From an uncultured Candidatus Babeliaceae bacterium (GTDB lineage Bacteria; Babelota; Babeliae; Babelales; Babelaceae): DNA of 64,000 bases. Every line of letters starts with the position of its first letter. The stretch's first letter is position 1. The position numbers were made by a program, and so were the translations under genes. Shown piece after piece: positions 2,464 through 58,595 of this stretch. The notes below the pieces were generated by a model, which saw only the letters and a list, made by a program, of their open reading frames with translations, was not told where the DNA came from and did no database searches. Location of the stretch: positions 736,001 to 800,000 of the forward strand of contig OY969927.1 in the NCBI GenBank assembly GCA_963704655.1. Reading direction: 5' to 3'.

Positions 2464-2522
2464 ATGGTTCGATTTCACTCACCACGAGCGGCCGCTCGCC
2501 CTGAGCATAGTCGAAGGGTGCG
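2464..2522. repeat. Family A inverted doublet, intergenic
   Basis: atggttcgatttcactcaccacgagcgg + ccgctcgccctgagcatagtcgaaggg. Confidence 0.9.
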
Positions 2523-4077: not shown

Positions 4078-4090
4078 AAAATTACCCCAA

Positions 4091-4151
4091 CACTTCGACT
4101 TCGCTCAGTGTGAGCGGCCGCTCGTGGTGAGCGTAGTCGAATCCATGGCGG
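4091..4151. repeat. Family A inverted doublet, intergenic
   Basis: cacttcgacttcgctcagtgtgagcgg + ccgctcgtggtgagcgtagtcgaatccatg. Confidence 0.92.
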
Positions 4152-4164
4152 CAGCGAGTACATC

Positions 4165-12769: not shown

Positions 12770-12794
12770 AATTGTCTTTATACACACAACTTAC

Positions 12795-12830
12795 GGCCGC
12801 TCATCCTGAGCTCGTCGAAGGGTTAAGCGG
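12795..12830 (+). repeat. Family A single copy, intergenic
   Basis: ggccgctcatcctgagctcgtcgaagggttaagcgg. Confidence 0.92.
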
Positions 12831-16839: not shown

Positions 16840-16921
16840 TCCCTCGATACATTCTACTTCGTAGAACACTCGGGATGCACGGATTATGGCCGCTCATCCT
16901 GAGCATGTCGAAGGGTTAGCG
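16840..16921. repeat. Family A inverted doublet, intergenic
   Basis: tccctcgatacattctacttcgtagaacactcgggatgcacgg + ggccgctcatcctgagcatgtcgaagggttagcg. Confidence 0.92.
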
Positions 16922-19201: not shown

Positions 19202-19840
19202 CTAATTGGTAACCTTGCAGACTACTAAAAGTTCAACTGAAGCGGCACCGTTTTTATATAATTCGCGCGCGGCGGCGGCTGCCGTTGCGCCCGTTGTATA
19301 TAAATCGTCAATTAAGAGTATTTTTTTATTATGTAAAGAAAAAGCACACGTAAATGCATCTTGAAGATTCTCTTTTCGCTCGGGCGCAGAGAGTGTTGAT
19401 TGAAAAGCCGTATTTTTGGTTCGTTTTAAAAGTGGCATTACCGGTTTATGCAAAACCCGTGCAATTTTTTGGGCTAATATTTCTGCTTGATTAAATCCAC
19501 GCCAGATTTTCCGTTGCCAATGCAGTGGAATCGGCACAATATAATCACAGGATAATGTTTGATTTTTAACATACTCAGAAAGCAAAAAAGCCATTTGGTC
19601 TATCGGTATCCGCTGGCTATTTAATTTTGCCTGAATTAACTTTTCCATAGGCTTTTGATACGCCGTAAAGGCATGTACGGTTATGTGGCGTGATGCTGTT
19701 ATAGAAATAGTTTGTGAAAATATTTTTGGTAATGCATCTAAACATTCAGTGCACAACACCGTGTGATGTGATAATAATAGTTCACACCCTACGCAATAGG
19801 GCGGGGATAGTATGTTTTTAAAAATGGTGAGTATGCGCAT
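19202..19840 (-). CDS. comF: ComF-family phosphoribosyltransferase
   Basis: CxxC..CxxC, VPIPLH, RGFNQA, LIDDLYTTGAT. Confidence 0.93.
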   Translation of the reverse strand: MRILTIFKNILSPPYCVGCELLLSHHTVLCTECLDALPKIFSQTISITASRHITVHAFTAYQKPMEKLIQAKLNSQRIPIDQMAFLLSEYVKNQTLSCDYIVPIPLHWQRKIWRGFNQAEILAQKIARVLHKPVMPLLKRTKNTAFQSTLSAPERKENLQDAFTCAFSLHNKKILLIDDLYTTGATAAAAARELYKNGAASVELLVVCKVTN

Positions 19841-19851
19841 GTGCCGGTATA

Positions 19852-20313
19852 TTACTCTTGTAATGTGGCAATAATGCATATCACGCCGACAACAATTGCT
19901 GCATCTGCAATATTAAAAACGGGTAACGCGTAATGGTTAACATGAAAAACAATAAAATCTATAACACCATTATACAATGCGCGGTCGATTAAATTGCCCG
20001 TTGCGCCAGCAATAACCAGTAACTCTGGGTAAATCGAAAAACCCTTAATAAAACGAAAGACGGTGTATCCAACAAGTAAAACTATCAGCAGTGAAATGGC
20101 AACAGAAAGCGCAATAAAAAAAGGCTGTGTTGCATGGTGAAAAATGCCCCATGAAATGCCCCGGTTGGTAAGTACTTCAAGAGAAACATACTGATTTAAC
20201 ACAATCTCTTTGGTTGCTGTCTTTAATGCCCACTGCTTACTAAAAAAATCTATAGCAAGGACAAAGGTGAAAAAAGAAAGCGCGCCAAAAACTGAAAAGA
20301 TTTTTTTCATCAT
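19852..20313 (-). CDS. lspA: Signal peptidase II
   Basis: NRGISWG, GNLIDR, GVIDFI, FNIAD. Confidence 0.96.
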   Translation of the reverse strand: MMKKIFSVFGALSFFTFVLAIDFFSKQWALKTATKEIVLNQYVSLEVLTNRGISWGIFHHATQPFFIALSVAISLLIVLLVGYTVFRFIKGFSIYPELLVIAGATGNLIDRALYNGVIDFIVFHVNHYALPVFNIADAAIVVGVICIIATLQE

Positions 20314-22682
20314 CGAACAGTTACTCCTAAGGCATGAACAGCTGCAGTAACCGCAGCGCGTAACTGGTCAATCTCTTGTTTAGAAAAAGTTTTTTCTTCA
20401 TCAACTGCTTTATAACGTAACGTTACTGCACGCTCAGAAACCCATTCCGGTTTTTCAAAGTAATCAACCAACTGCACGTGATATATGCGTGCGTCTACCA
20501 CCGCTATTGCTTGCTCAATTGCATCAACTGAAACGGCAAATGGCACGAGTAAACTGATATCTGTAGTAACAGGCTGGTATGCTGAAAGCGGGGTGAATGT
20601 TACCAACTCTTTATGCGCTTGTAATAATACATCAAGTTCAATTTCAAAAATAAACGCATGGCCCGTAGTAAATGCACGCATGCTGTCTGGCCTTACACAA
20701 CCTGCATAGCCGATAACTTTATCATTAAAAACTAACTCTGCTGTTTGATGCGGATGATAGAACACAGCAAGGTCAGATTCAGGCTTTCTCCAAACTATTG
20801 GCAATGAAAGTAACTTAAAGATTTGAGAAACTTTTTCTTTATATTCATAAAAATTAAGCTCAGTTGCTTGATACCAAATACCTGCAAAAGATGATTGTTC
20901 AACTGGTTTATTATTAATTTTTTTCCAAATATTATTTATCTCAAAAAATGCCATACGGTCATGTTCATAGACATTTTGTTCAATATTTTTAAAAAGATGT
21001 GGAATCAGTGACGAAACTAAGCTTGTCCAATGTTCTGAAACGGGGTTTGCAACAGCATAAGCCGTATCGGATAAAAGTTTACTCAAACCCACTTTTTCTA
21101 AAAATTGATTATCATAAAATGCATAGTTACTTACTTCATGCATGTTAAAACCAAATGCACACAGGCGCTTAAGCGCACGACGCATCATAATATAATCGGT
21201 AGAAAATGGCTTCATAACCCGCGAAGGCAATTGCATTGCAAGATTATTAAAGCCGATAAAACGCGCAATCTCTTCAACAATGTCCTCTGCGATAGTAATG
21301 TCTTTTGTTGCGCGAAAACTTGGCACGCTTATCGTGAACTCTGCACCAGTAGCAGTGTCTTTTTGTTGTACGCCAAAGCCCAACGCACTTAAGATAGTGT
21401 AAATATGATCTGCAGAAACATGAGTTCCAATACGATCAGAAACAAACGTCTGCGTAAAACGTATACTTTTTTCTTGAGGAACTTCACCAAGCGACATAAT
21501 TGCTTGCGCACTTTGATAGACTACATCATGGATATCTAAAAGATGTAAAAAGCGTGTTATAGCTTGCGTGTTATATAAAGGATCGAGTGATTTTTCAAAT
21601 CTTGTGGAAGACTCTGTACGGACCTTATGCTTAATTGATGATTTACGGATAGCTGCTGCAGCATATGATGCCGATTCAATAAAAAGCGCGGCTGTTTTTC
21701 TGGTTACACTAGAACCTTTACCGCCCATAATTCCTGCAAGACCTAAAATCTTTTGGCCATCACTGATAACCATATCAGTATCAACTAAGGTAATAGTTGC
21801 ACCATCAAGAAGTAATAACTTCTCACCCGAGGTTGCTTGCTCGACCTTAAGAACATCGCCTGTAATATATGCAGCATCAAATGCGTGCATTGGTTGGCCG
21901 ATATCATACATAACATAATTTGTAGTATCAACAATGCCATTTATAGGCTTTGCATCAATGGCACATAAGCGAAAGAGCATATCGGGAAATGAGGCAACAT
22001 AGGTGATTTTCGGGATACTTAAGCCTGCTATGCGTTTGCAATTTCGCTCCCCGATCACACTGAGCGAAGTCGAAGCGTTCTCCAAACCGATGGTGTTGCC
22101 TGCAACAGCGGGCGTGCTTTGGGTGAACGAGCGTATCGCTTTTTGAGCAAATATATACTCTTCTGGCAATAATTCTAAGCCATAAAGTGCTCCAACTTCA
22201 CGGGCAAAACCTCTGTGTCCCCATAAATCTGGTCTATGCGTTAATGCTTTGTTATCAAAAGTTAAAATATAGTCCCATGCAGGGATCGCGCTTTTCCAAG
22301 CGCCAGCTTTTTGTGCTTCAGGCACCCAGACAGCAGGAACAAGACCATCTTTTTCAGCATGCAGGTCACGCAGCGAAAGATAGGTAAACATATCGCCCTG
22401 CTTGAGTATCAAACAGCTGTCACCAACAGCCAGGTCTGTACGCGGGGGTAAGGTGATCTCTTTATGTAACTCGACAATTGAAAGCGTACAAGCGGTATCT
22501 TGTTTAATAACAGTACCTAAAAAAATCTTATCTAATGGATAGGTAATTTTTTCAACATGTTCTACTTCAGCAACAGTAGCTCCGATACGTTCAAAAAAGT
22601 TGCCCTTTTCAAACTCAGACTGAAACTCAGAAAATGGGTTTTTCTTAATATGACTAAACAACCAAGAAAGAGATAGCTTCAT
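20310..22682 (-). CDS. pheT: Phenylalanine-tRNA ligase beta subunit
   Basis: HRPDLWGHRGFARE, GQPMHAFD, GIMGG, STRFEK, EEIAR. Confidence 0.96.
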   Translation of the reverse strand: MKLSLSWLFSHIKKNPFSEFQSEFEKGNFFERIGATVAEVEHVEKITYPLDKIFLGTVIKQDTACTLSIVELHKEITLPPRTDLAVGDSCLILKQGDMFTYLSLRDLHAEKDGLVPAVWVPEAQKAGAWKSAIPAWDYILTFDNKALTHRPDLWGHRGFAREVGALYGLELLPEEYIFAQKAIRSFTQSTPAVAGNTIGLENASTSLSVIGERNCKRIAGLSIPKITYVASFPDMLFRLCAIDAKPINGIVDTTNYVMYDIGQPMHAFDAAYITGDVLKVEQATSGEKLLLLDGATITLVDTDMVISDGQKILGLAGIMGGKGSSVTRKTAALFIESASYAAAAIRKSSIKHKVRTESSTRFEKSLDPLYNTQAITRFLHLLDIHDVVYQSAQAIMSLGEVPQEKSIRFTQTFVSDRIGTHVSADHIYTILSALGFGVQQKDTATGAEFTISVPSFRATKDITIAEDIVEEIARFIGFNNLAMQLPSRVMKPFSTDYIMMRRALKRLCAFGFNMHEVSNYAFYDNQFLEKVGLSKLLSDTAYAVANPVSEHWTSLVSSLIPHLFKNIEQNVYEHDRMAFFEINNIWKKINNKPVEQSSFAGIWYQATELNFYEYKEKVSQIFKLLSLPIVWRKPESDLAVFYHPHQTAELVFNDKVIGYAGCVRPDSMRAFTTGHAFIFEIELDVLLQAHKELVTFTPLSAYQPVTTDISLLVPFAVSVDAIEQAIAVVDARIYHVQLVDYFEKPEWVSERAVTLRYKAVDEEKTFSKQEIDQLRAAVTAAVHALGVTVR
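22051..22079 (+). repeat. Family A copy in frame in pheT
   Basis: ccgatcacactgagcgaagtcgaagcgt, near-identical to the reverse complement of 4091-4117. Confidence 0.8.
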
Positions 22683-22720
22683 GTATTTACGACCTAACTT
22701 TAAAGAACTTAATAATCCGC

Positions 22721-22786
22721 CCGCATGGATTCGACTACGCTCACCACGAGCGGACGCTCATCCTGAGCCTGTCGAAGGGTTAGCGG
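22721..22786. repeat. Family A inverted doublet, intergenic
   Basis: ccgcatggattcgactacgctcaccacgagcgg + cgctcatcctgagcctgtcgaagggttagcgg. Confidence 0.93.
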
Positions 22787-22867
22787 GTCAATGAAAGTCT
22801 GCTATATATCTAGTAAAGTTTACGCAAAAATTGTAAAACGATCAATCTATGGTAAAATTATATCATT

Positions 22868-23782
22868 ATGAAAACTATACTACTTTATTACAAATATACC
22901 GATGTCGAATTTCCTGCGCAGCAAGTAAAACTTCAAAAAGAGCTCTGCGCACGCTTAGGTCTCAAGGGACGTATCATTATTGCTACTGAAGGAATTAATG
23001 GCACTGTTGCCGGAACCCAGGAAGCTTGTGATGCTTATATTGAGCACATGAACGCTCACCCACTTTTTTTTGGCATTGATTTTAAAATCAGCCAGTGTGA
23101 AGGCGAGCCGTTCCCCCGCATGCGAATTGTTGAAAAAGAAGAGATCACTCGCATGGGCAAAAGTCCCAAAGAAATCTCTTATAAAGATACTGGGACGCAT
23201 TTAACCCCACAACAAGCACATGACCTTATTGCCAACAATAAAGATCTACTTATCTTAGATGGCAGAAACGCTTACGAGGCTGCTATTGGTAAATTTGTAG
23301 GAGCCATTGTGCCTGATATTGAGACCTTTAGAGAATTTCCTGATTATATAGATAAAAACCAAGATATGTTTAAAGATAAAGAGGTCTTTATGTACTGCAC
23401 CGGCGGCATCCGCTGCGAGCGCGCAACTGCTTACTTAAAAAGTAAAGGTGTTGCAAAAGAAGTATATCACGTAACTGGTGGTATTGACCGTTATGCTCAG
23501 GCGTATCCTGACGGATACTTTAGGGGCAAAAATTATGTCTTTGATGGCCGCATAGCCGTTCCTGTTAATAACGATATTCTGAGTACCTGTGCACTTTGTT
23601 CACAAGCAGCTGACGATTATTACAACTGTGTCTATGCTGGCTGCAACAAACAGCTTATTATTTGCCCACCATGTGTACAAGAACATAATGCAACCTGTAG
23701 CGAAAAGTGTAAACAACTGATTTTAGATAACCCTGCACTTATGCGCATTATCCCGCACAAAACAGCAACATGCGCTCGCTAG
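22868..23782 (+). CDS. trhO: Rhodanese-domain tRNA U34 hydroxylase (TrhO/UPF0176)
   Basis: LLYYKY, EGINGT, MYCTGGIRCE, YVFDGR. Confidence 0.9.
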   Translation: MKTILLYYKYTDVEFPAQQVKLQKELCARLGLKGRIIIATEGINGTVAGTQEACDAYIEHMNAHPLFFGIDFKISQCEGEPFPRMRIVEKEEITRMGKSPKEISYKDTGTHLTPQQAHDLIANNKDLLILDGRNAYEAAIGKFVGAIVPDIETFREFPDYIDKNQDMFKDKEVFMYCTGGIRCERATAYLKSKGVAKEVYHVTGGIDRYAQAYPDGYFRGKNYVFDGRIAVPVNNDILSTCALCSQAADDYYNCVYAGCNKQLIICPPCVQEHNATCSEKCKQLILDNPALMRIIPHKTATCAR

Positions 23783-24807
23783 AAAACCTGATTCAACAGA
23801 ACGCTCCACTGGCAGACAAAAACTGGTTTAAAACAGGCGGGCCTGCAGAGTTTTATGCAGAGCCACAAACACCACAAGAATTTGCTGCAGCTATTATATT
23901 CGCACGCGAACACAGTTTGCCTATTACATTATTAGGCGAAGGCGCTAACGTACTTATCAGCGATGCGGGAATTTCTGGGCTTGTTATTCGCCCCGCTTTA
24001 AAAGAAATTATATTCGAAACATGTTCAAACGCCGTGCACCCTGCCTGTCCGTCGAAGCCTTGGCGAAGTCGGAAGTGTTCACCGCAGGTGAATGTATCGA
24101 AGGGGCAGAATATCTGGGTTACAGCGCAGGCAGGCGTGAGTATGCATGAACTTATCGATGCTTGCTTAGCGCAAGGCGCATTAGGCTTAGAAGAATTTAG
24201 TGGGATACCCGGAACAGTTGGCGGGTCAGTTTTTATCAATATCCATTATTTTGAATTTTTATTAAGCAAGTTTATTACTCAAGCGACAGTTATTAACGCC
24301 ACAACCGGCGAGCTGCTTTCAGTTGACCATGCATGGTTTAATTTTAGTTATAACTATTCAATGTTACATGAAAATAATTACTATCTAGTAGATGCTACGT
24401 TTAAACTTAAACGTGCTGAATCGCCTTTAGATGTTGCGTTTGCGCAAGGGCGCAGAAAAGAGATTATTCGCCACAGAGCAGCTCGATACCCAAATGCGGG
24501 AACTTGTGGCAGTTTTTTTAGAAACTTTTATCCGCAAGAAGTTACGCTTGAAAGCTTAGGAAAAAAACTAATCTATGTTGCTTATTATTTAGATAAAATT
24601 GGTGTTAAAGGCGCACTTTCATGCGGCGGTGCAACGGTGTCTTACCAGCATGCAAATATGCTCGTTAACTCTGGCAATGCCTCCACTGCCGACTTAATAA
24701 CTCTTGCACGCACCATGCAAGAAAAAGTCCGTGATGCTTATGGCATTACGCCACAGCCGGAATGCAGATTATTAGGTTTTGAAAAATACCCATTACTATC
24801 CTATTAA
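23770..24807 (+). CDS. murB: UDP-N-acetylmuramate dehydrogenase with in-frame repeat insertion
   Basis: FKTGGPA, GEGANVL, GIPGTVGG, GSFFRN, HANMLVN. Confidence 0.96.
   Translation: MRSLENLIQQNAPLADKNWFKTGGPAEFYAEPQTPQEFAAAIIFAREHSLPITLLGEGANVLISDAGISGLVIRPALKEIIFETCSNAVHPACPSKPWRSRKCSPQVNVSKGQNIWVTAQAGVSMHELIDACLAQGALGLEEFSGIPGTVGGSVFINIHYFEFLLSKFITQATVINATTGELLSVDHAWFNFSYNYSMLHENNYYLVDATFKLKRAESPLDVAFAQGRRKEIIRHRAARYPNAGTCGSFFRNFYPQEVTLESLGKKLIYVAYYLDKIGVKGALSCGGATVSYQHANMLVNSGNASTADLITLARTMQEKVRDAYGITPQPECRLLGFEKYPLLSY
24031..24105 (+). repeat. Family A copy interrupted by family B (24044-24073), in frame in murB
   Basis: gccgtgcaccctg[cctgtccgtcgaagccttggcgaagtcgga]agtgttcaccgcaggtgaatgtatcgaagggg. 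Confidence 0.92.
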
Positions 24808-26309
24808 GCTTCATTAATTTCCTTAATAACAAACATATTAGCGTTATTAAGTTTTTGAAAAGCTTCATTTGCACTAGCATAATTCTCAGGATTTTTATCA
24901 GGATGAACTTTCAAAGACAATATCCTAAATGCTCTATTAACATCATCTATTGTTGCTTTATGAGAAACGCCCAAAATCTCATAAGGATTTTTAGTATTTA
25001 GGATCCGTGTTATCGCTTGATCTTGAGTTTCATTTTTTAATTCAGAACTCATAGAACTTTCAGCTTCAAATGATTTTTTATAAGCATCTTTTAACACATT
25101 CACGTCCCATATTTTGGCGACCTTGCCAAGAGACAAAGTAATTATTTTTTTATCTGAAGGTGAAAATTTTACAGACAAAACTTTATACTCACCGCCAAAT
25201 GGATTAAAGCTTGTCAGAGTCTTGTGAGTTTGTACATCTTGTATAGTAACCGTTTCATTTTCACCTACCAAGATAACCATATCACCATGATATGAAAATA
25301 TTGTCTTGCTTGAATCATAAGCTTCATGTCCAAGAATTTTATAAAGATTGCCTAAAGCTGTACCTATATTGCCATCCCAAACTCCGATAAAGCCATCAGG
25401 TGTGTAGGTAAGAATTTTAGTTCCATCTGCTGAAAAAGCTATAGTCGGTCTATCTTCTTCGGGATTACTTACTTCTTTTTCTTTAACAAGTGTGGCTATC
25501 TTTTGACCTGCCTCTACTGACCATAATACTATCGGGCCATAATACTTTTGCCCTGAAATGGTCTGCACAGCACTGGTGAGTAGTTTTATGCCATCGGGTG
25601 AAAAGTGCGCTATATTTACGTTTGGAAAGGTATGCAAACTGGTGCCGGTAGCAACATCCCATATTTTTGCAACGCTTTGTTTTTTTGCAACATCTTGTGC
25701 TACGGTAAGGAGCTTACTTGCATCAGAAGAAAATTCTATAACACTAACCGCTTTAGGCGTCGCAATTGCCGCCTGCTTTTTGCCTATAGAAGGCATAGCC
25801 CCTGAAGATGTTTCAGGCGCCTTAAGAGCCTCGTAAGCTTTAAGACTAAGTAAGCTTCCCCCTGTTGCAACATCCCAAATTTTAACTATTCCATCTTCTG
25901 CTCCTGTTGCAAGCTTTAGATCATCGTGAGAAAAACTTACTTTATTAATTTTTTTTGGATGAGCATTAAAAGTACTTATCATGCTACCAGTTCCGGTATC
26001 CCACAAAATAACTGTCCCATTTGAAGATCCAGTAACAATTTTTTTACCATCATGCGAAAATGCCGCAACCACAACAGGACTACTATGATCAAGCTTATAT
26101 ATAAGTTTGCCAGTTTGCGCATCAAAAAGATCTGCGCTGTTTCCCTCACCAGGGGTTAAAATTTGCTTTTCATCTGGGCTAAAAAATGCGAATAATATCA
26201 TAGCATTATTTGAAATTGTTACTACAGGTGAAATATCCTGCATCCCACAAAGCTGTTGAGCCATGCCCAGCAAAACAAGAATAAAAACATTAAGAATATT
26301 TTTTTTCAT
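24804..26309 (-). CDS. Signal peptide + WD40 repeats + C-terminal DnaJ domain
   Basis: Multiple FSxDG...KIWD repeats; NPYEILGV...HPDKN. Confidence 0.9.
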   Translation of the reverse strand: MKKNILNVFILVLLGMAQQLCGMQDISPVVTISNNAMILFAFFSPDEKQILTPGEGNSADLFDAQTGKLIYKLDHSSPVVVAAFSHDGKKIVTGSSNGTVILWDTGTGSMISTFNAHPKKINKVSFSHDDLKLATGAEDGIVKIWDVATGGSLLSLKAYEALKAPETSSGAMPSIGKKQAAIATPKAVSVIEFSSDASKLLTVAQDVAKKQSVAKIWDVATGTSLHTFPNVNIAHFSPDGIKLLTSAVQTISGQKYYGPIVLWSVEAGQKIATLVKEKEVSNPEEDRPTIAFSADGTKILTYTPDGFIGVWDGNIGTALGNLYKILGHEAYDSSKTIFSYHGDMVILVGENETVTIQDVQTHKTLTSFNPFGGEYKVLSVKFSPSDKKIITLSLGKVAKIWDVNVLKDAYKKSFEAESSMSSELKNETQDQAITRILNTKNPYEILGVSHKATIDDVNRAFRILSLKVHPDKNPENYASANEAFQKLNNANMFVIKEINEA

Positions 26310-28709: not shown

Positions 28710-31067
28710 TTACCACGTAAAGCGGGCTTCGACTTCACCACCAAAGTCACCACGCTCGTCGCGCATGCCACGAAGCGTTATTTCGTCAGTTGGCTTATAA
28801 GCAACTTCAATAAGTACGTCTTCACTTAAACTAAAGTTTTGTTGAATTAATGCACTTAAATTTTCATTTACTTCTATTGCAAGGGCTGCACGAAGACCGC
28901 CACGGCTTGTCTGGTCACTAAAACGGGGAACAATTTTTACATTTTGCAATGGCCCGAGCCAATTTTTAAATCCGTCAGATTCAGTGAACTCATCTGAAGA
29001 ACCAACGATGAGTTTTTCAACCATCCCCATAGAAGATAACGGCATCACCAACGATAGCGAACTATCTGGCGACCCACCAAATAAAAGGCCTATAATTTGT
29101 TCTTCTTGCAAATTCGGAGTTGACTGAAAGGAAATAACTGGGTTTTGAGCCGTGCCATCAACCGTTAATGTTATTGCATAATTTTTTATTACCGCAGTTG
29201 CACATAGCTCAATTGCCGGGTCGTCACGTTCATTATCAACAAAAAATATTTTTCCATATTGAATCTCAAGCGGCTTATAAGGAAAGTTTAATGTTCCTTG
29301 CAATAACTCAATGTGCCCATAGAGTTGCGGCTGCGCGATAGTACCAAGCACCTGCAATTTAACCTGTGCGCGCGCTTGTAAAAATGGAGTTTTTATTTCA
29401 ACGGGCTCATATGAATGTATCGTTACATCAAGGTCTGCTGTCTGCGCCAGTGGGTGACTTTCAAAAGGGTTAATGGTTGCAGCAACAATATCATTACCTA
29501 CGCCACCAGAAAATGGATTGTTTCGAATGTGACATTTTTTTATCGTACAAATACCTTGTACCTTTGATCTAGATTCTTTTTGGTATTCAAGAACACACGC
29601 ACCAGAAAGCTGTGCAAAAAAATCTTTTGCTCGGTTAATAAAAAAGTCCTGCATCATGATCGGCACATGCGCAGACTGCACGTTATTGTGCGCATCAAAA
29701 CCAAGCGTACTTATGCCACTTATTAATCTGCCACGGTCCGTCTGCAACGTCGTGTCACGTAACAAAAGATACGTTCTATCAGAAGCATATAATGCAGTAG
29801 TATGAAGCGAACGTAAAAAATTATAGGTGTAAGGAATCCGAACATGTAGCCCAGAAAGATCTAGTTCACTCTGCCAATATTTTGTAGTTCGCATGCCCTT
29901 TACAATAAAGGGTGCTTGGTACTGTAACAAATCACCATATGGAGATAGTAACTTGAGATACTCCTGTGGCACTATGTTCTTTTGCAAAAGGGAATAAAAA
30001 AAGTCTGTTGCGCCGCTTACTGTATAGCGACTATCATAATATATCTGTGCTTCTAGTTTATGCTTATTATCATCATGAATAGTTACCTTTACATGGTCAG
30101 GCTGTGAATCATAATCTAAATTAAATAATAACGATTGTAGCGTAATAGATGCTGTGCCCTGAAGATCTGTCGCTACTGATAGCGTGCCGGCAGAAGTTAT
30201 TGCATTAAACTGATACGCATTTTTTGGTGCGATAGTTTTTGAAAGGCTAAGTTCAGTTTTTTGATCATCGTCCTTAAATGAAACTGATACATTATTATCT
30301 TGCACATCAGCACAAATTTTACCCGGGCACCACGAATCTTCTAAAGGATTACGTAACATAATGGTGCCATGTATATCTGTAAACGCCTTTTTTGTGCCCA
30401 TATCAGTAACTCTTTTTATCAATAGCCTTAGGTCCCGAGCAAGAAATTGATTCTTATAAGCGATATGATCTTGGGTAATAGTAAGACCGATATGTTGGTG
30501 ATTATCAATAAGATCTATAGCGCCGCTTACATTACATTCAAGGGCCGTGTCCGCATTAACATGAAGCGTAATTTTAGCATGCGGTATATGCAACTTTTCA
30601 GGAATAATAGGTATCACCATAACCTTTTCACGAATAAATGCCTGAACATGATCCACAATGGCAACCTTACCATCAACAACCTGCGTATCGATTTGCATAT
30701 CACCACAGGTAATAGTAAGAACAACCAGCTTCTCTAAAAAGAGTTTTGCCCAATTAACCGTTACAGTTATACTATCGCTTGTCCAAAACCAATCACGCCC
30801 TTTTTCAGGAAGCACCGTTACGTCAGTTAAAAAGATACTACCATGGAGTATATCTAGACGATCGACTTGCGCATTAAAATCGCAGTCAAAAGCTTTACTT
30901 GTGCCTTGGCAAATAGCTGTTTCAAGATATTCGATTGTTACCGGGTCATGCATAACGATAAACAAAGATGCAAGCACTGTTAAACATATTGCACTTATAA
31001 AAGCAATCAAAAACTGCACAAAAAATATACTATATTGTACCAATAACTTTATTAATAACTTTGCCAT
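28710..31067 (-). CDS. TamB/AsmA-like protein
   Basis: N-terminal anchor, beta-rich body, TamB-like C-terminus (GT..QP.LYG.IEL, STPNL.EEQI..LLFG). Confidence 0.8.
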   Translation of the reverse strand: MAKLLIKLLVQYSIFFVQFLIAFISAICLTVLASLFIVMHDPVTIEYLETAICQGTSKAFDCDFNAQVDRLDILHGSIFLTDVTVLPEKGRDWFWTSDSITVTVNWAKLFLEKLVVLTITCGDMQIDTQVVDGKVAIVDHVQAFIREKVMVIPIIPEKLHIPHAKITLHVNADTALECNVSGAIDLIDNHQHIGLTITQDHIAYKNQFLARDLRLLIKRVTDMGTKKAFTDIHGTIMLRNPLEDSWCPGKICADVQDNNVSVSFKDDDQKTELSLSKTIAPKNAYQFNAITSAGTLSVATDLQGTASITLQSLLFNLDYDSQPDHVKVTIHDDNKHKLEAQIYYDSRYTVSGATDFFYSLLQKNIVPQEYLKLLSPYGDLLQYQAPFIVKGMRTTKYWQSELDLSGLHVRIPYTYNFLRSLHTTALYASDRTYLLLRDTTLQTDRGRLISGISTLGFDAHNNVQSAHVPIMMQDFFINRAKDFFAQLSGACVLEYQKESRSKVQGICTIKKCHIRNNPFSGGVGNDIVAATINPFESHPLAQTADLDVTIHSYEPVEIKTPFLQARAQVKLQVLGTIAQPQLYGHIELLQGTLNFPYKPLEIQYGKIFFVDNERDDPAIELCATAVIKNYAITLTVDGTAQNPVISFQSTPNLQEEQIIGLLFGGSPDSSLSLVMPLSSMGMVEKLIVGSSDEFTESDGFKNWLGPLQNVKIVPRFSDQTSRGGLRAALAIEVNENLSALIQQNFSLSEDVLIEVAYKPTDEITLRGMRDERGDFGGEVEARFTW

Positions 31068-31552
31068 ACACTATTACGATAACGGTAAACACGAATATAA
31101 GAAAATGCTGAAACGGGGGTAGTTAATGCGTACTGTTCATATCCGTCTGTTATATACAGTGTTCCAGACTGTAACGTGCCATCAGGATGCGCACCTATCT
31201 TTTTATCTACAAAAGTAACCATTTGTGTAACAAGCTTTTGTGGTGAAGATGGCGGCCCATATACATCAGGTAATACCCCAAATCTAAAACCATCTTGCAA
31301 AGCATAACGACTGCCGTCATATATTAATGCTGAATTTACTTCATCAATAGTAATTTTTTGCTCTTTTTTTAAGCACGTTGCACGTGTTGCCGCAGTACGC
31401 AGCAACAGGCTCAACACAGCAACATCAGTAGCAAAAGAAGTGCCCTTAACGACATTATAACTTATAAATCCGATTGTAGAACAAACAAGTATTAACGTTA
31501 TTACCAGCATCAACTCAAACAGCATGAACCCTTGTCTGGCCATTCGAGCCAT
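31052..31552 (-). CDS. Type IV pilin / T2SS pseudopilin-like protein
   Basis: MARMARQG|FMLFELMLVI prepilin motif. Its ATG overlaps the upstream stop (TAATG). Confidence 0.85.
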   Translation of the reverse strand: MARMARQGFMLFELMLVITLILVCSTIGFISYNVVKGTSFATDVAVLSLLLRTAATRATCLKKEQKITIDEVNSALIYDGSRYALQDGFRFGVLPDVYGPPSSPQKLVTQMVTFVDKKIGAHPDGTLQSGTLYITDGYEQYALTTPVSAFSYIRVYRYRNSVWQSY

Positions 31553-32044
31553 TATTCGATTCCCTCTTGCGAAACTATGAAATCTGCATCGCAGCCGCTC
31601 GTGGTGAGCGTAGTCGAATCCATGCGGCAAGATTCTTCATTTTTGAATCCACCCCAACCATTACGTATTAATATCTCTTTTTTCTGACGCGTCCAGCGCT
31701 TTATTTTATGCTCTGCCACAAATGCCTCATCGCGTGTTTGAAATAACTCAAAATATTTTAATGTAACGGGTAGTCTATTTAATGTGTAACCCTTATACTT
31801 GCCTTCATTATGTTCGCATACCCTTTGTTCTAAATTATCTGTATGCCCAATATAATAAGAACCATCAGCACATTGAACGATATAAAAATAAAAACCTTCA
31901 TTCATGATTTACCAAATTTTTTTAGGCCGCATGGATTCGACTACGCTCACCACGAGCGGCCTGTTAAAGTGATTTTATTATAGATAAATTACAATTAATA
32001 ATTTTCTGTCTTGGTAGAAAAACATTATTCGATTCCCTCTTGCG
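31550..32044. mobile_element. GIY-YIG cassette with 35-bp inverted repeats (31594-31628, 31926-31960) and 22-bp direct repeats (31550-31571, 32023-32044)
   Basis: IR gccgctcgtggtgagcgtagtcgaatccatgcggc, exact inverse at the other side; DR cattattcgattccctcttgcg twice. Mobility is inferred. Confidence 0.8.
31552..31905 (-). CDS. Small GIY-YIG nuclease (UPF0213/YhbQ-like)
   Basis: YFYIVQCADGSYYIGHT...R..EH...YT..R.P......E......A...E..IK.W.R.KK. Confidence 0.93.
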   Translation of the reverse strand: MNEGFYFYIVQCADGSYYIGHTDNLEQRVCEHNEGKYKGYTLNRLPVTLKYFELFQTRDEAFVAEHKIKRWTRQKKEILIRNGWGGFKNEESCRMDSTTLTTSGCDADFIVSQEGIE

Positions 32045-33734
32045 TAGTAGCAACAGAAAGAACTTCTTCAATAGTAGTAATACCCTTTTTAATTTTCTCG
32101 ATACCATCATGCACCAACAATGTCATACCATCTTTTAAAGCGGCATCTTGTATGAGTGCAGTATCAGCGCGTTCAATAGTTAAACGTGCAATAGCATTAG
32201 TCATAACCATAATTTCAAATAATGGGATTCGGCCACTGTACCCTGTGTTTAAGCATTCATGACAACCGACCGGATTATAGAAAGTTATCTTACCCGCTTC
32301 TTCTGGAGTTATCCCAATACGTTTAAGCACTTGCGGTGTCGGTACATATTTTTGTTTACATGACGGGCACAATTTTCTTACAAGCCGTTGTGCTAAAATA
32401 GCAACAACCGATGACGCGATTAAAAAGGGCTCGATACCCATATCTATAAGTCGGGTTATACTTGCAGCGGAACTATTGGTATGTAACGTTGTTAATACTA
32501 AATGGCCCGTTAATGATGCCTGAATAGCAATTTGCGCCGTCTCTTGGTCACGCGTTTCACCGATCATGACAATGTCAGGATCTTGTCGCAAAATTGAGCG
32601 CAGTGCCGCGGCAAAAGTAAGGCCAATTTTATCCTGCACCTGCACTTGCCCGATGCCTGCCATCTGATATTCAACCGGATCTTCAACGGTTACAATATTA
32701 ACATCAGGACTATTTAATTTATTTAAAACAGCATACAAAGTAGAAGTTTTACCAGAACCGGTAGGCCCTGTTACCAAGATAATACCATTTGGTTGTTCGA
32801 TAGACTGCATTAAAATTCTATAATCTCGGTCGCTTAAGCCAAGTTCATTAAGCTGCTTAAATGTTTTTGCTTTATCCAAAAGACGCATTACAATACGCTC
32901 GCCATACACAGTGGGCAGCACCGAAACACGAATATCAATTGCTCTATCGGCGATTTTAATCTGTATACGGCCATCTTGAGGATGGCGCTTTTCGGCAATA
33001 TTAAGATTTGCCATAATTTTTATACGTGATGCAATTGCGGCTTGCGCACGCTTTGGCGGTGTAATGCTTGGGTATAAAATCCCGTCAATGCGGTAACGAA
33101 CACGCAACTCTTTTTCAAAGGGTTCGATATGAATATCAGAAGCTTCCTGCTTTACGCCTTGGTACAAAATATGGTTCACCAATTTAATAATCGGCGCTTC
33201 ACTTGCCATTCCAAGAATATCTTCTTCATTAATTGCAGCAAAATCTAAAGCTGAAGTAAACTCTTTTTCCTCTTCTAGACCCTCGATAACCTCTTTAGAA
33301 CTTTCATAGGGATAAAATTTATTAATAGCTTCAACAATTATTGCTTGCGGCGCAACAGCAACATCATAGGGAATCTTAAGTAATAAACTGAGTTCATCAA
33401 GTGGTTGAAAATTAAAGGGGTTTGCACACAAAAGCGTAACAGCGTTATCTGTGCCCATTTTGATAGGCATAATAGCCTGCTCACGTAAAAACTTAAGGGG
33501 AATTTGTGAAATAACATCTGGGTCCGTCATCTGCTCGGTTACTTCAGCGACGTAGGGGCACTCAAATTTTTCTGCCAAAGCTTGAGCTAAATGCTGTTCA
33601 CTGACACCAAAATCTCGTGAGCACTTAAAAAAGTTTTGGGATTTTTCATCACAGGCAGCCGAAAGCGCAGCTGATTTTTCTTTATCAAGAAAGTTTTTAT
33701 CTAAAAGAATCTGAACAATACTTTTTTTTATCAT
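32025..33734 (-). CDS. gspE: GspE/PilB secretion or pilus ATPase
   Basis: ASDIHIEP, PQDGR, GPTGSGKT, LRQDPD, CxxC motifs. Confidence 0.93.
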   Translation of the reverse strand: MIKKSIVQILLDKNFLDKEKSAALSAACDEKSQNFFKCSRDFGVSEQHLAQALAEKFECPYVAEVTEQMTDPDVISQIPLKFLREQAIMPIKMGTDNAVTLLCANPFNFQPLDELSLLLKIPYDVAVAPQAIIVEAINKFYPYESSKEVIEGLEEEKEFTSALDFAAINEEDILGMASEAPIIKLVNHILYQGVKQEASDIHIEPFEKELRVRYRIDGILYPSITPPKRAQAAIASRIKIMANLNIAEKRHPQDGRIQIKIADRAIDIRVSVLPTVYGERIVMRLLDKAKTFKQLNELGLSDRDYRILMQSIEQPNGIILVTGPTGSGKTSTLYAVLNKLNSPDVNIVTVEDPVEYQMAGIGQVQVQDKIGLTFAAALRSILRQDPDIVMIGETRDQETAQIAIQASLTGHLVLTTLHTNSSAASITRLIDMGIEPFLIASSVVAILAQRLVRKLCPSCKQKYVPTPQVLKRIGITPEEAGKITFYNPVGCHECLNTGYSGRIPLFEIMVMTNAIARLTIERADTALIQDAALKDGMTLLVHDGIEKIKKGITTIEEVLSVATTQEGIE

Positions 33735-46135: not shown

Positions 46136-48697
46136 ATGGAAAAAAAGTACGATCATCAGATTAATGAACCTAGAATAAAAGCCTTTTGGCACGAAGATGC
46201 CACCTACACCCTAGCACCTGAACAACTAGATGATCGACCTCTTTTTAGTATAGACACTCCCCCGCCTACCGTTTCAGGCTCACTACATATTGGCCATATA
46301 TTTTCCTATACGCATACCGATCTAATCGCGCGCTATAAGCGCATGAGCGGATACGCCGTATTCTATCCATTTGGCTTTGATGATAACGGGTTGCCCACAG
46401 AGCGCTTTGTTGAAAAAAAGAAAAGTATTACGGCTTTTAGCGTGGGCCGTTCAGAATTTATTAAACTCTGTCTTGCAGAAACGGTTGAAGTTGAAAAAAA
46501 ATTCCAAGATTTGTGGCAGACTATCGGCCTTTCAATCGATTGGAACCATTGGTATTCAACCATCGACGCACGAACACGCAAAATCTCACAAGAATCGTTT
46601 ATCGATTTATATAGTAAAAAATATGTCTATCGCAAGCAAGAACCGGCACTTTATTGCACCACTTGTTACACTTCTGTAGCTCAAGCAGAACTTGATGATG
46701 CAGAAAAAGAAACATTCATGACCACTATCGCCTTTACCGGCGCCGATGGTTCGGTGTTGCCTATAGCAACAACACGTCCAGAATTTTTAGGCGCATGCCT
46801 GGCAGTTTTATATAACCCAGAAGATGGCCGTTATAAGCATTTAAAAGGCACCGTTGCAAGCGTGCCACTTTATGGAACTACCGTTCCGTTATTGCCCGAA
46901 GAAACGGTTAAAATAGATAAAGGCACTGGGCTTGTTATGTGTTGCTCTTTTGGAGACACTACGGATATTGAATGGATCAAAAAACTTAATCTCACCATTA
47001 AGCCAATTTTGCAAAAAGATGGCCGCTTTCAGGCTGATTTAGAGTATATTGGTGGCCTAAAAGTTAAACCTGCCCGTGAAAAAATTCTTGCTGAACTTGC
47101 AACACAAAATTTGATTATTGAACAAAAGAAGCTTGTTCATAATGTCAATATTCATGAACGCTGCAAAAATGAAATAGAGTTTTTAAGTTTACCGCAGTGG
47201 TTTATCGATATTAAATCACATAAAGAAGATTTTCTTGCTATGGGCCGCCAAGTTATGTGGCACCCAGAATATATGAAATCACGATATGACAACTGGGTAG
47301 AGCATATCAATTGGGACTGGTGCATTTCGCGTCAGCGCTTTTTTGGAATTCCGTTTCCTTGCTGGCACTGCACAACCTGCGGTACCGTTATTTTTGCAGA
47401 AGAATCACAATTACCGATAGATCCACAAGAAACACCTTACCATAAACCATGCCCGCAATGTGGCAGCACAGAAATTGTACCTGATATGGATGTTATGGAC
47501 ACGTGGAACACGTCGTCATTAACGCCACAGATTGCTGCAGAGATGTTTAAAAAGGCGTACCCAAAAACCCATAAAACGTTATTGCCGATGAGCATGCGCC
47601 CGCAGGCACATGATATTATCCGCACGTGGGCATTTGATACCATTGTTAAATCGTGGATGCGCGACAAACATATTCCATGGCACGATATTGTTATCTCTGG
47701 CCATGTGCAAACAAATGATAAACAAAAGATCTCTAAATCGCAGGGCAATTCACCACTTGAACCAGAAAACTTGCTTAAAACGTACCCTGCCGATGTAATT
47801 CGTTACTGGACCGCCGGTGCTCAGTTAGGAACAGACACCGCGTTTTCTGAAAACCAGTTTAAAATTGGCCAACGATTAATTGTTAAACTCTGGAACGCCT
47901 GTTTATTTATTAAAGAACATGGTACCCCGCTAACCCTTCGACAAGCTCAGGATGAGCGGGTCTTTAGTGCTGAGCATTCGTCGAAGCATCAGGATGAGCG
48001 AGGGGAGGCCGCTCGTGGTGAGCGAAGTCGAATCCATTTGAGCGGACTTGTAATCCCGCAGGACACCATTAATAAATGGATCTTGCACCAAGCGACAGAA
48101 ACATTTGGTGCCTATAAAAATGCATTTGATGATTACCATTTTCATAAAGCGCTTGAAAGTGTCGAAAAGTTCTTTTGGAACGATTTTTGTGATAACTATC
48201 TTGAACTGGTTAAAGATCAATTTTTCAACCCGGCAAACTATAGCCCAGAACTTATAGCAGAAACACAGGCCGTTTTATATAAAGTCGGTTTTGAATTGAT
48301 ACAATGGTATGCGCCGTTCTTGCCGTATATCACCGAAACCATTTATCAAGAATTATATAAAGAAAACTACAAAGTAACATCGCTGCACCAAACAACGTAT
48401 AGTTCAGAACATGACCATTATGATTATGTTCATGAAGTTAAAGTTGTTGAGCTCTTACTGCTGGCAGTACAGCACGTACGTAAAATTAAAACTGATGCTG
48501 CCGTATCGCTTAAAACAGATATCAAGCTTTTAACTATCCACTGCACCGCGGAGCAGGAAAAACAGCTTGCAACGGTTGAAAAAATATTAGCCGGTGTTGC
48601 ACGCGCACAAGAGATACGTTATACAACAGTAAAACTTGAACAAGAAGTTTCACTTATTGATAATCAGGGCATTTACTCAATGGTAATTGATTTATGA
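46136..48697 (+). CDS. valS: Valine-tRNA ligase (short, archaeal-like type) with in-frame repeat insertion
   Basis: DTPPPTVSGSLHIGH, DWCISRQR, PQAHDIIRTW, KISKS. Confidence 0.97.
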   Translation: MEKKYDHQINEPRIKAFWHEDATYTLAPEQLDDRPLFSIDTPPPTVSGSLHIGHIFSYTHTDLIARYKRMSGYAVFYPFGFDDNGLPTERFVEKKKSITAFSVGRSEFIKLCLAETVEVEKKFQDLWQTIGLSIDWNHWYSTIDARTRKISQESFIDLYSKKYVYRKQEPALYCTTCYTSVAQAELDDAEKETFMTTIAFTGADGSVLPIATTRPEFLGACLAVLYNPEDGRYKHLKGTVASVPLYGTTVPLLPEETVKIDKGTGLVMCCSFGDTTDIEWIKKLNLTIKPILQKDGRFQADLEYIGGLKVKPAREKILAELATQNLIIEQKKLVHNVNIHERCKNEIEFLSLPQWFIDIKSHKEDFLAMGRQVMWHPEYMKSRYDNWVEHINWDWCISRQRFFGIPFPCWHCTTCGTVIFAEESQLPIDPQETPYHKPCPQCGSTEIVPDMDVMDTWNTSSLTPQIAAEMFKKAYPKTHKTLLPMSMRPQAHDIIRTWAFDTIVKSWMRDKHIPWHDIVISGHVQTNDKQKISKSQGNSPLEPENLLKTYPADVIRYWTAGAQLGTDTAFSENQFKIGQRLIVKLWNACLFIKEHGTPLTLRQAQDERVFSAEHSSKHQDERGEAARGERSRIHLSGLVIPQDTINKWILHQATETFGAYKNAFDDYHFHKALESVEKFFWNDFCDNYLELVKDQFFNPANYSPELIAETQAVLYKVGFELIQWYAPFLPYITETIYQELYKENYKVTSLHQTTYSSEHDHYDYVHEVKVVELLLLAVQHVRKIKTDAAVSLKTDIKLLTIHCTAEQEKQLATVEKILAGVARAQEIRYTTVKLEQEVSLIDNQGIYSMVIDL
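47927..48045. repeat. Family A composite (three units) in frame in valS
   Basis: ccgctaacccttcgacaagctcaggatgagcgg..tgctgagcattcgtcgaagcatcaggatgagcg..gccgctcgtggtgagcgaagtcgaatccat. Confidence 0.93.
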
Positions 48698-52036: not shown

Positions 52037-53344
52037 TCAAATATGCTGGATAATATCGCGCTGAGGGACTTTAACCTCAATACCTGTGGTCATATTTTTA
52101 ATAGTTGCCATGCCAGAGGCCTGTTCATCGGCCCCAATAAGAATAGCCCATTTTGCGCCCATTTTATCAGCAGCTTTAAACATACTTTTAATAGATGATT
52201 TATCTAAAATAATATCGGCACAGATATGTTCGGCATGAAGCATTTGCACAATCTGCAACCCTAAATTTCTTTGTTCAGCTGTTAAGGGAATAATAACTGT
52301 AAGCGCCGGTTGAGTATCATGACCAACTAAACTTTTTTGCGATTCAAGCAACAACTGTAACCGTTCAAGGCCAACAGCGGCACCGATAGACGGGTAGTCA
52401 TGTTTAGCCCCAATTTGCGTTGCAAGCGAATCATAACGGCCACCGCCACAGAAGGTGTTTTGCGCGCCCAAGCCATCAGAAGAAACAGAAACAAACTCAA
52501 AGACCGTTTTATTGTAATAGTCTAATCCGCGAACCAACGTCGGCTTAACAGAATAGGTTATAGAAAGTTCTTCAAGAATATTTTTTAGCTGTTGCCATTC
52601 AAGTGCAGATTCTTGTGCCATGGTATCAATAATAGTAGGCGCTGTTGCAAAGAGTTTGTGGCAGCTTTCCTGCTTGCAATCAAAAACACGCATAATATTA
52701 GTGTTCATGCGATGCTTACACAAATCACATAATTCTGTAATATGCTTTTCAAGAAACTTTTTAAGAACTTTTTGATATGCTGCACGGTCTTCACGCGTGC
52801 CAAGGTAATTGATTAAAAGAGCATAACCTTCAATTTTTAAAACATTCATAAAAAGGGCATCGAGCATCGCGATAAAAAGGGCATCCTGCAAAATTGAATC
52901 AGAGCCGATTATCTCCATGCTCATTTGATGAAACTGGCGATAGCGCCCTTTTTGTGGGCGTTCATGCCTAAATGCGGGCCCAACAGAAAAAACTTTCCAT
53001 GGCGTATCTTGAATGCCGGCATTAATAAATGCGCGCATAATACTTGCAGTAAGTTCGGGGCGAAGACACATTTTATCTGAATCGGCGCTAGCTGAATCGC
53101 CCCCCCGCTCATCCTGAGCTTGTCGAAGGGTTAGCGCAACGTCTGAAAGTACCCGATACATCTCCTTGCTGACAACGTCAGTTTCAAGGCCCAATGACCG
53201 CTTAAAAAGTTCAAGTGGCTCGATTAAGGGAGTGGATATTTCATGAAAATTATAATCCAAAAGATGTTTTTTTGCCTTTTGGATTATCCAATTATATAAA
53301 GAAAGATCAAGAAAATCTTGTGTACCCTTAATACGCGTAATCAT
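52037..53344 (-). CDS. hisS: Histidine-tRNA ligase with in-frame repeat insertion
   Basis: KGTQD, KEMY, LRPE.TA, FRHERPQKGRYRQF, RGLDYY, GGGRYD. Confidence 0.98.
   Translation of the reverse strand: MITRIKGTQDFLDLSLYNWIIQKAKKHLLDYNFHEISTPLIEPLELFKRSLGLETDVVSKEMYRVLSDVALTLRQAQDERGGDSASADSDKMCLRPELTASIMRAFINAGIQDTPWKVFSVGPAFRHERPQKGRYRQFHQMSMEIIGSDSILQDALFIAMLDALFMNVLKIEGYALLINYLGTREDRAAYQKVLKKFLEKHITELCDLCKHRMNTNIMRVFDCKQESCHKLFATAPTIIDTMAQESALEWQQLKNILEELSITYSVKPTLVRGLDYYNKTVFEFVSVSSDGLGAQNTFCGGGRYDSLATQIGAKHDYPSIGAAVGLERLQLLLESQKSLVGHDTQPALTVIIPLTAEQRNLGLQIVQMLHAEHICADIILDKSSIKSMFKAADKMGAKWAILIGADEQASGMATIKNMTTGIEVKVPQRDIIQHI
53105..53136 (+). repeat. Family A copy in frame in hisS
   Basis: ccgctcatcctgagcttgtcgaagggttagcg, exact reverse complement of valS 47928-47959. 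Confidence 0.95.
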
Positions 53345-58406: not shown

Positions 58407-58595
58407 TCCTTCGATACATTTTGCTTGCGCAAAACACTCAGGATGCACGGATTAAAGGCCCGCTCACCCAGAGTACTTCGATGCAGTTCATCCTGAGTAA
58501 AATAGTGCGTAAACGCACCAATCGAAGGGCTCAGTATAAACTTCGTCGAGTCGCCTGTCAGCCGCCGCTCATCCTGAGCCTGTCGAAGGGTTGCG
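58407..58595. repeat. Largest family A cluster (about four units, partly nested), intergenic
   Basis: tccttcgatac..actcaggatgcacgg; ccgctcacccagag..[ttcatcctgag..tcgaaggg]..gtcgag; gccgctcatcctgagcctgtcgaaggg. Confidence 0.88.

Follow-up and report, generated by a model that had tools for sequence, protein, structure and literature searches.

What is a small nuclease gene doing between two inverted copies of a hairpin repeat that recurs, without the gene, in the neighbouring DNA? The locus that raises this question lies in a 64,000-nt stretch from an uncultured Candidatus Babeliaceae bacterium (contig OY969927.1, positions 736,001 to 800,000; the whole stretch is called the window here, and positions are counted from its first letter). 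Its central feature is an open reading frame (ORF) of 117 aa at 31552..31905 on the minus strand, which encodes a GIY-YIG nuclease. Our answer is that the locus is probably a nuclease-hairpin cassette of the Ssn kind, in which a ~90-aa GIY-YIG nuclease is encoded between inverted copies of its presumed cognate hairpin, with members of the same hairpin family scattered genome-wide. Ssn proteins, as described by Chenal et al. (2025, Nat Commun 16:2388, PMC11893778), are single-domain GIY-YIG nucleases (cd10448; 94 aa in N. meningitidis), and their genes are bordered by dispersed hairpin repeats, termed NTS or, in their wider pattern, SRM.

The bracketing of the gene is exact, as an earlier sequence-only reading of the window had pointed out. 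Two arms of 35 nt (31594-31628 and 31926-31960) form an inverted repeat that is 100% complementary with 297 nt between the arms, and the nuclease core (31636-31905, ~residues 1-90) lies inside it. With up to 3 mismatches allowed, the 35-mer was found 4 times in the window, compared with 0.00 expected from 100 shuffles. The upstream arm (31926..31960, minus strand) is forward on the gene's sense strand (CCGCTC..GAGCGTAGTCGAA..) and lies 20 nt before the ATG. The downstream arm (31594..31628) is forward on the plus strand of the window, that is, reverse on the gene's sense strand.

Outside the arms, a perfect direct repeat of 22 nt (CGCAAGAGGGAATCGAATAATG; 31550-31571 and 32023-32044) had 2 matches in the window versus 0.00 expected. 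This repeat coincides exactly with the outer borders of the region flagged by the sequence-only reading and was unreported there. In copy 1 (32023..32044), a type II/IV secretion ATPase gene (32025..33734, minus strand; Pfam T2SSE, E=5e-140, and MshEN, E=1e-12; product ending in ...QEGIE within the repeat) finishes with its five final codons and TAA, and the overlapping ATG is also included. Copy 2 (31550..31571) has a Shine-Dalgarno-like AAGAGGGAA together with the ATG that starts the downstream gene, a 166-aa ORF at 31052..31552 on the minus strand, and the TAA of this copy now ends the GIY-YIG ORF. Since the two copies hold the 3' end of the ATPase gene and the ATG of the next gene, the original junction was a TAATG stop/start overlap, which a cassette of 451 bp (spacer, hairpin, gene, hairpin, spacer) entered as a whole, by insertion. 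Both host genes were left whole because the insertion duplicated 22 bp.

Within the cassette, an AT-rich spacer of 62 nt (31961..32022, minus strand) lies 5' of the first hairpin and carries a TATAAT hexamer at 31977-31982 (minus strand), a candidate promoter element. Reading of the sequence places a further spacer of 22 nt (31572..31593, minus strand) between the downstream arm and copy 2 of the direct repeat. A promoter scan of the cassette returned 2 promoter-like sites against 2.6 expected, none above shuffle level, and a terminator scan of it found 0, with no terminator-like T-run after the arms. The product of the downstream 166-aa ORF has a hydrophobic N-terminus (MARMARQGFMLFELMLVITLI...) that looks pilin-like, and this ORF had no match in Pfam even at E<=10.

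The sequence-only reading was also right about the enzyme: the 117-aa product matches Pfam GIY-YIG (PF01541) over residues 5-76 with E=6e-17, and no other domain was found in it. The 19 relatives found in databases are for the most part 87-99 aa long, and their alignment is confined to residues 1-~92, indicating that the final ~25 residues come from translation continuing through the downstream arm and into duplicated host sequence. The ORF exceeds most relatives in length because it lacks a stop of its own and crosses the reverse hairpin to the duplicated TAA. By terminating on the duplicated TAATG (31552-31554), the nuclease ORF has taken over the stop/start overlap with the downstream gene, possibly with translational coupling. 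Residues Y8, Y17, Y18, R28, H32 and E65 were invariant in an alignment of 20 sequences (A1). The catalytic Tyr/Tyr/Glu set of the Ssn type is thus present as Y8 (with Y6), Y17/Y18 and E65, the match to the SsnA residues being positional only; SsnA loses cutting with Y6A, Y17A or E64A (PMC11893778). The nearest named relative of the window nuclease is from candidate division TM6, and its best structural relatives are the UPF0213 entries 1ywl (E=1.1e-14) and 1zg2 (E=3.5e-14) of the PDB. Neither NCBIfam nor PADLOC assigned it to a family, and the NCBIfam model for group I intron endonucleases did not match it.

The cassette arms represent one subtype of a hairpin family with the pattern CCGYTC-stem-GAGC(N2-3)GTCGAA-stem'. 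The consensus of 219 distinct units, drawn from the window and the related loci described below, was CCGYTC-R-N-S-S-T-GAGC-YT-GTCGA-A-S-S-N-Y, consisting of a conserved 5' flank (CCGYTC), a stem of 4-5 bp whose sequence is variable yet complementary, and a conserved loop, GAGC-(N2-3)-GTCGA. The 5' flank is conserved far better than its 3' partner, and the unit therefore has a direction. Stem pairing was evident among 144 distinct units, in which 66.9% of cells were paired compared with 53.7% in shuffles (0/500 shuffles reached this value), and the covariation score was 0.383 as opposed to 0.172 when shuffled and 0.07-0.16 with slid partners. The inner pairs exchange CG, GC and UA freely (CG 92/GC 37; CG 76/GC 52; UA 65/CG 32/GC 24), and G-T/G-U pairs are tolerated. 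Note that an asymmetry between G-T and A-C mismatches was dismissed as a signal, as it merely mirrors the identity of the conserved 5'-side base. An alternative small hairpin, GCTC-N5-GAGC, is possible, and covariation is uninformative on it because both of its sides are invariant. Folded as single-stranded DNA (ssDNA), the upstream cassette arm reached -9.7 kcal/mol (z=-2.3) and the downstream arm -7.2 kcal/mol (z=-0.65), and doublets of the hairpin folded better than single arms (z about -2.6 to -3.2). Rfam at gathering score matched only tRNA in the window and no hairpin family.

The association between gene and hairpin is real and general across phyla rather than a local coincidence, and its orientation is conserved. 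A protein-alignment scan of species-representative genomes matched at least 602 stretches, 565 of which were confirmed by tblastn, and the best 79 loci (43-60% identity; designated by L numbers) were kept. The sequence-only reading had proposed inspecting the flanks of homologues for inverted repeats, and these were indeed found: 53/79 loci had a flanking inverted repeat with a score of at least 15, in contrast to 20/4017 sliding control positions, and the score was above every control in 51 loci (among loci with at least 10 controls). The loop motif occurred 177 times within 500 bp of the gene, in 64/79 loci (1.81/kb), and 68 times in the remaining flanks (0.058/kb), a 31-fold enrichment. On the gene's strand the upstream arm was forward in 37 cases and reverse in 1, and the layout with a forward arm upstream and a reverse arm downstream was found in 46/79 loci. 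The two arms of one cassette shared an identical variable stem in 21/48 cassettes, compared with 162/2256 cross-pairs. Motif-positive loci came from Pseudomonadota (37/48) and Chloroflexota (13/15), and also from Thermodesulfobacteriota, Nitrospirota, Myxococcota, Binatota, Bacteroidota and Campylobacterota; loci without a phylum label were positive in 6/6 cases, including two from Babeliales (L003 and L028).

Some of these loci carry two-tier hairpins, in which the loop spacer of an outer hairpin is occupied exactly by a second, complete GAGC..GTCGA hairpin (27 pattern matches, some overlapping; L007, L011, L012, L014, L016, L018, L019, L021, L025, L066, L052 at 10284 and 10401, and L059 at 10200). 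The loop spacer may itself be a site of insertion or expansion. In L069, from a Coxiellaceae metagenome-assembled genome, an inverted repeat of 85 nt surrounds the gene (9901-9985 and 10284-10368), and its hairpin keeps CCGTTCGCCCTGAG...TCGAAGGGC with the loop core swapped for an unrelated inner palindrome.

Direct footprints of insertion were found in two further loci. In L052, a direct repeat of 31 nt with 1 mismatch (9864-9894 and 10482-10512) spans the ATGA stop/start overlap of HsdM and HsdS, and in L060, a perfect repeat of 20 nt (31/35 in its longer form; 4410-4444 and 4915-4949) covers the start of pheT, with its ATG and first codons. Together with the window, three cassettes thus show duplications of 22-35 nt at operon junctions, each of which rebuilds the start of the downstream gene, and such footprints appear to be new. 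Direct repeats with a score of at least 16 were seen at 8/3734 control positions. One reading of the long duplications is that they arose from staggered breaks 22-35 nt apart. Direct repeats of the same score in L019 and L040 were rejected as target duplications, as their sequence is that of the hairpin and not of a target. Long target duplications were absent from 49/53 inverted-repeat cassettes, and also from L080, L081 and L084. All three are annotated plasmid copies: L080 lies between nrdR and an RNA methyltransferase gene and has hairpins, L081 lies between rnc and era, is decayed and has no hairpin, and L084 is described below. When grouped by context, 83 loci formed 49 groups, 43 of which were singletons; one context was shared by 19 Sphingomonadales loci, another by 7 Sphingomonadales loci and a third by 6 Chloroflexota loci. 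The cassette is therefore stable inside a family and changes its location from one family to another, as is likewise the case for the REP-associated tyrosine transposases (RAYTs) of repetitive extragenic palindromic (REP) repeats.

How close is this cassette to the published system? SsnA binds its hairpin solely as ssDNA and cuts a few nt upstream of it, being inactive on the reverse strand, on double-stranded DNA (dsDNA) and on RNA; SRM is carried by 71% of the regions around Ssn homologues and lies on both sides in 42% (PMC11893778). In its Discussion, that paper likens NTS-ssnA-NTS to an insertion sequence and draws parallels to IS200/IS605 and to the transposases associated with REP/BIME, and insertion of the cassette as a unit is put forward there as a hypothesis (PMC11893778). 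With hairpin-flanked nucleases and the REP-RAYT comparison both in that paper, the central idea of the sequence-only reading, a REP-RAYT layout rebuilt around a GIY-YIG enzyme, was already in print; the resemblance of layout stands, and the novelty of the association does not. Both systems have a single-domain GIY-YIG protein of ~90-100 aa, a gene bracketed by a dispersed hairpin, a 5' flank that orients the repeat and the Tyr/Tyr/Glu residues. The window differs in that its hairpin fails the SRM pattern, its nuclease sits on a separate branch nearer to UPF0213, its hairpins also lie inside coding genes, compared with just 2% of NTS in N. meningitidis (PMC11893778), and insertion duplications are visible.

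The difference in hairpin was clear from pattern searches. The published SRM pattern, HGTCWYN(0-2)YYVSBRHN(0-5)WNVSBRGN(0-2)RNCYNB, had 0 matches in the window and occurred within 500 bp of the gene in 2/79 loci, with no enrichment (0.020/kb near versus 0.018/kb far), and the published dRS3 pattern had no match in the window. As a control, four SRM copies were recovered around the gene at L084, whose cassette is carried by an Azospirillum plasmid, with sufB and sufC as its neighbours. The protein of the window shares 36% identity with that of L084 (SRM-flanked, Ssn-type) and 48% with B. subtilis YazA, and UPF0213 chains of the PDB score 57 bits with the window protein as opposed to 27 bits with the L084 protein. 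In a tree of 132 rows, made by a quick search on 93 columns and poorly resolved within clades, a branch with SH-aLRT 100 splits 27 rows from 105 rows. The smaller side holds L084, a random sample of 25 of its 120 listed relatives and one paralogue; the larger side holds the window protein, all 67 GTCGAA-flanked proteins, YazA and two Legionella plasmid proteins. With the L084 clade as a proxy, the sequence comparison places the window nuclease on a branch separate from the SRM-flanked Ssn-type proteins. Note that the L013 contig (Sphingomonadaceae) has a second small GIY-YIG gene (19565-19876) that belongs to the SRM-type clade and has neither motif nearby.

By sequence, the closest proteins are those of UPF0213 (YazA, E. 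faecalis EF2693 and B. halodurans BH0048), which are of equal size and single-domain. YazA, however, lies in a syntenic operon without hairpins, whereas the window gene lies in an insertion with hairpins and a 22-nt duplication. In the supplement of PMC11893778, Vineibacter terrae and Niabella drilacis appear as species with a cd10448 homologue in which SRM is not enriched (0.63x and 0.96x). Loci of these two species in our sample, L062 and L077, which may be other genes than the listed homologues, carry the GTCGAA hairpin. Searches in spreadsheet supplements of that paper found no hairpin string, no contig accession of the loci in our sample and no Dependentiae entry, and its main text mentions none of UPF0213, YhbQ, YazA, COG2827 or target site duplication. 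Literature searches matched no hairpin string of the GTCGAA family, returned nothing relevant on UPF0213/YhbQ/YazA/COG2827 with GIY-YIG or on Dependentiae with repeats or GIY-YIG, and for Ssn follow-ups since 2025 gave the original paper only. Relative to the Ssn paper, the hairpin, the nuclease branch and the insertion footprints appear new.

The window also contains many copies of the hairpin without the gene. The loop pattern GAGC-N2-3-GTCGAA matched the window 14 times, at 10 places, where 0.09 matches were expected, and 0/100 shuffles reached 14; with degenerate relatives at 10943-10984, 24021-24106 and 61371-61422, this agrees with the estimate of about 14 loci in the sequence-only reading. 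That reading had further stated that the very sequence of the arm recurs without the gene. This is true of 22721-22753, which is exact (the full copy, 22720-22754, has 2 end mismatches to the 35-mer), and not of 48006-48037, which is one base off; a third copy, 4117-4151, departs from the arm by 3 mismatches close to its 3' end. Intergenic gene-less doublets in reverse/forward order lie at 2468..2520 (recognised by the loop pattern), 4090..4152 (abutting at GAGCGGCCGCTC; -17.5 kcal/mol, z=-3.0; right half of the cassette arm type) and 22719..22787 (-17.4 kcal/mol, z=-2.6; left half equal to the cassette arm over 33 nt). The CCGCTC ends abut in the reverse/forward doublets of the window, giving GAGCGGCCGCTC palindromes at 4112-4123 and 2488-2499. 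The arrangement is not fixed, since loci and window together have 15 forward/reverse and 9 reverse/forward doublets, those of the window itself being reverse/forward.

Single intergenic hairpins, identified by the loop pattern, are found on the plus strand at 12785..12825, 16878..16921 and 58553..58593. The same pattern places plus-strand units inside the PheT ORF (22051..22079; ORF 20310-22682, minus strand) and near the 5' end of the histidyl-tRNA synthetase ORF as called (53093..53136; ORF 52037-53344, minus strand). A hairpin cluster at 47926..48053 lies in frame in a class I aminoacyl-tRNA synthetase ORF (46136-48697, plus strand), between the catalytic and anticodon-binding domains; its units read in frame as PLTLRQAQDERVFSAEHSSKHQDERGEAARGERSRIHLSGL, an in-frame addition of ~41 aa. 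The degenerate relative at 24021-24106 lies within the MurB ORF (23770-24807). All six solo units of the window (2503, 12808, 16901, 22062, 53116 and 58576) are forward on the plus strand, whose GC skew is negative throughout the window; relative to local genes, 3 are sense and 3 antisense. In the other loci, forward units were on the C-rich strand in 22 cases and on the G-rich strand in 13, which is not significant, the units being non-independent.

If the window nuclease behaves as SsnA does, it would recognise the forward hairpin (loop plus CCGYTC flank) only in ssDNA and would cut a few nt 5' of it. Each strand of the cassette would present a forward hairpin at its own 5' end, and cuts could therefore fall at both cassette borders. 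The same activity might either disperse gene-less hairpins or mainly restrict or edit incoming or replicating ssDNA. We also put forward, tentatively and with more doubt than belief, a wider proposal: that a UPF0213-like GIY-YIG nuclease and its own hairpin, CCGYTC-stem-GAGCYTGTCGA-stem', constitute a second, independent partnership beside Ssn/NTS, which would move between phyla as a unit and insert at tight operon junctions with duplication of 22-35 bp, and whose nuclease would multiply gene-less hairpins, including in-frame copies in essential genes.

Several observations weigh against these proposals. The data on the host are those of the 64-kb window, to which the counts of hairpins and genes are restricted. 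Binding, strand specificity, cut site and spread of the hairpin by the window nuclease would all be carried over from SsnA by analogy, and the nuclease is only 36% identical to the sole SRM-flanked Ssn-type protein compared, being closer to YazA/UPF0213. Single arms fold not much better than shuffles (z -0.65 to -2.5). Long duplications of host sequence occur in just 2/53 other inverted-repeat cassettes, and the 22-nt duplication of the window sits 22 and 62 nt beyond the arms, so that the inserted unit is not simply bounded by hairpin-adjacent cuts. The sequence-only reading had itself named homologues that lack flanking repeats or sit in conserved housekeeping surroundings as evidence against it, and some of each exist: the motif is absent near the gene in 15/79 loci, YazA lies in the conserved trmNF-yazA-rsmI operon without flanking hairpins, and the Sphingomonadales synteny (19 and 7 loci) implies that movement is rare.

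In one alternative, the gene is a host housekeeping nuclease of the UPF0213/YazA type, engaged in repair or ssDNA processing, near which independent hairpins (terminators, mRNA stabilisers or nucleoid sites) accumulate. The 48% identity to YazA in its hairpin-free operon, the UPF0213 proteins of the PDB as best structural relatives and the synteny in 19 and in 7 Sphingomonadales loci all fit this explanation. We nonetheless consider it unlikely, as a 31-fold enrichment at the gene in 64/79 loci and many phyla is beyond chance proximity, and the fixed forward/reverse layout (37:1; 46/79) is left unexplained. In addition, the loop is conserved from the AT-rich genome of the window (G+C 33-43% in 2-kb steps) to the G+C-rich Sphingomonads, and the hairpins move with the gene inside the duplicated insertion. 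It is more improbable still that the hairpins act at the RNA level, controlling expression through structures in untranslated regions, attenuators or small RNAs, with a nuclease that ignores hairpin DNA. The cassette arms do lie in likely 5' and 3' untranslated regions and their stems tolerate G-T/G-U pairs. Yet the six solo units of the window are evenly split between sense and antisense, hairpin units lie within coding frames, the only Rfam match at gathering score is a tRNA, the arms have no terminator-like T-run after them, and the characterised relative SsnA does not bind RNA.

Homing offers another route to an inserted nuclease gene. GIY-YIG domains drive homing, and a free-standing endonuclease that cuts dsDNA at empty operon junctions, followed by copying of the cassette through repair, would account for insertions at tight gene junctions and would make the hairpins incidental ends. 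However, endonucleases of the I-TevI type join a catalytic domain to a separate DNA-binding domain and are intron-encoded or free-standing in phage DNA, whereas the window nuclease conserves only a bare ~90-aa catalytic core without a DNA-binding domain and lies amid chromosomal housekeeping genes. No sequence relationship links the insertion sites (T2SSE/pilin-like, hsdM/hsdS, pheT, nrdR and rnc/era), homing is not known to leave a target duplication, and the hundreds of gene-less hairpins would have no explanation, which makes this route very improbable indeed. The Ssn-kind cassette accordingly remains our preferred reading of the locus.

Likenesses to other repeat systems help to place this Ssn-kind cassette. 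REP repeats were reportedly connected with RAYT transposases by Nunvar et al. in 2010. As in REP/REPIN-RAYT systems, an enzyme gene lies between inverted copies of a short palindromic repeat, solo copies and inverted doublets occur, and placement is syntenic within a family; the enzyme of the window is, however, a GIY-YIG protein and not an HUH/Y1 transposase. Rickettsia palindromic elements are short palindromic repeats in frame inside essential protein-coding genes, as are the hairpins in the class I aminoacyl-tRNA synthetase, PheT, histidyl-tRNA synthetase and MurB genes here; their sequence is unrelated to the window hairpin, and we know of no enzyme associated with them. Penelope-like elements are GIY-YIG retroelements with long target duplications of variable length and thus share with the cassette a GIY-YIG nuclease on a mobile element, whereas the cassette has no reverse transcriptase and a bacterial host, so that the likeness is one of nuclease fold and duplication lengths alone.

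The remaining content of the window includes housekeeping genes. No transposase or integrase was found among 58 window ORFs scanned with Pfam, many of which matched no family, in agreement with the sequence-only reading. An ORF of 501 aa (24804-26309, minus strand) combines WD40 repeats with a C-terminal DnaJ domain, a eukaryote-like architecture that fits an intracellular lifestyle. Together with the housekeeping genes and the TM6 origin of the nearest named nuclease relative, this ORF points to a host that is probably Dependentiae-like. Three paralogous ORFs of ~510-530 aa (53496-55088, 61474-63006 and 63076-63999) share 63-76% nucleotide identity over several hundred bases; the two full-length ones, 53496-55088 and 61474-63006, had no Pfam match at E<=1e-8, and the third exits the end of the window. 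An Ala/Pro-rich stretch at 55697-55811 with a 9/12-nt periodic repeat lies in an ORF of 617 aa (55121-56974) without a Pfam match.

If the wider proposal is true, the seeding of REP-like repeats by ssDNA nucleases that are directed to hairpins would be a general route in bacterial genomes, one that evolved repeatedly, and a biochemical function would fall to UPF0213, a family as yet uncharacterised. The Ssn paper showed that very small GIY-YIG proteins can act on ssDNA with sequence specificity in partnership with genomic hairpins, and defined the pairing of enzyme and site through one hairpin type; here, in the window and in 64/79 related loci, another hairpin with a conserved loop of 11-12 nt goes with another protein branch, which adds to the candidate pairs of enzyme and site for use as ssDNA tools and provides a testable substrate for UPF0213-like proteins. 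As to mobility, the three junction duplications appear to be the first direct sequence footprints found of such a cassette inserting as a unit. Finally, as the hairpins of this reduced genome also lie in frame in aminoacyl-tRNA synthetase genes, they shape protein sequences as well.

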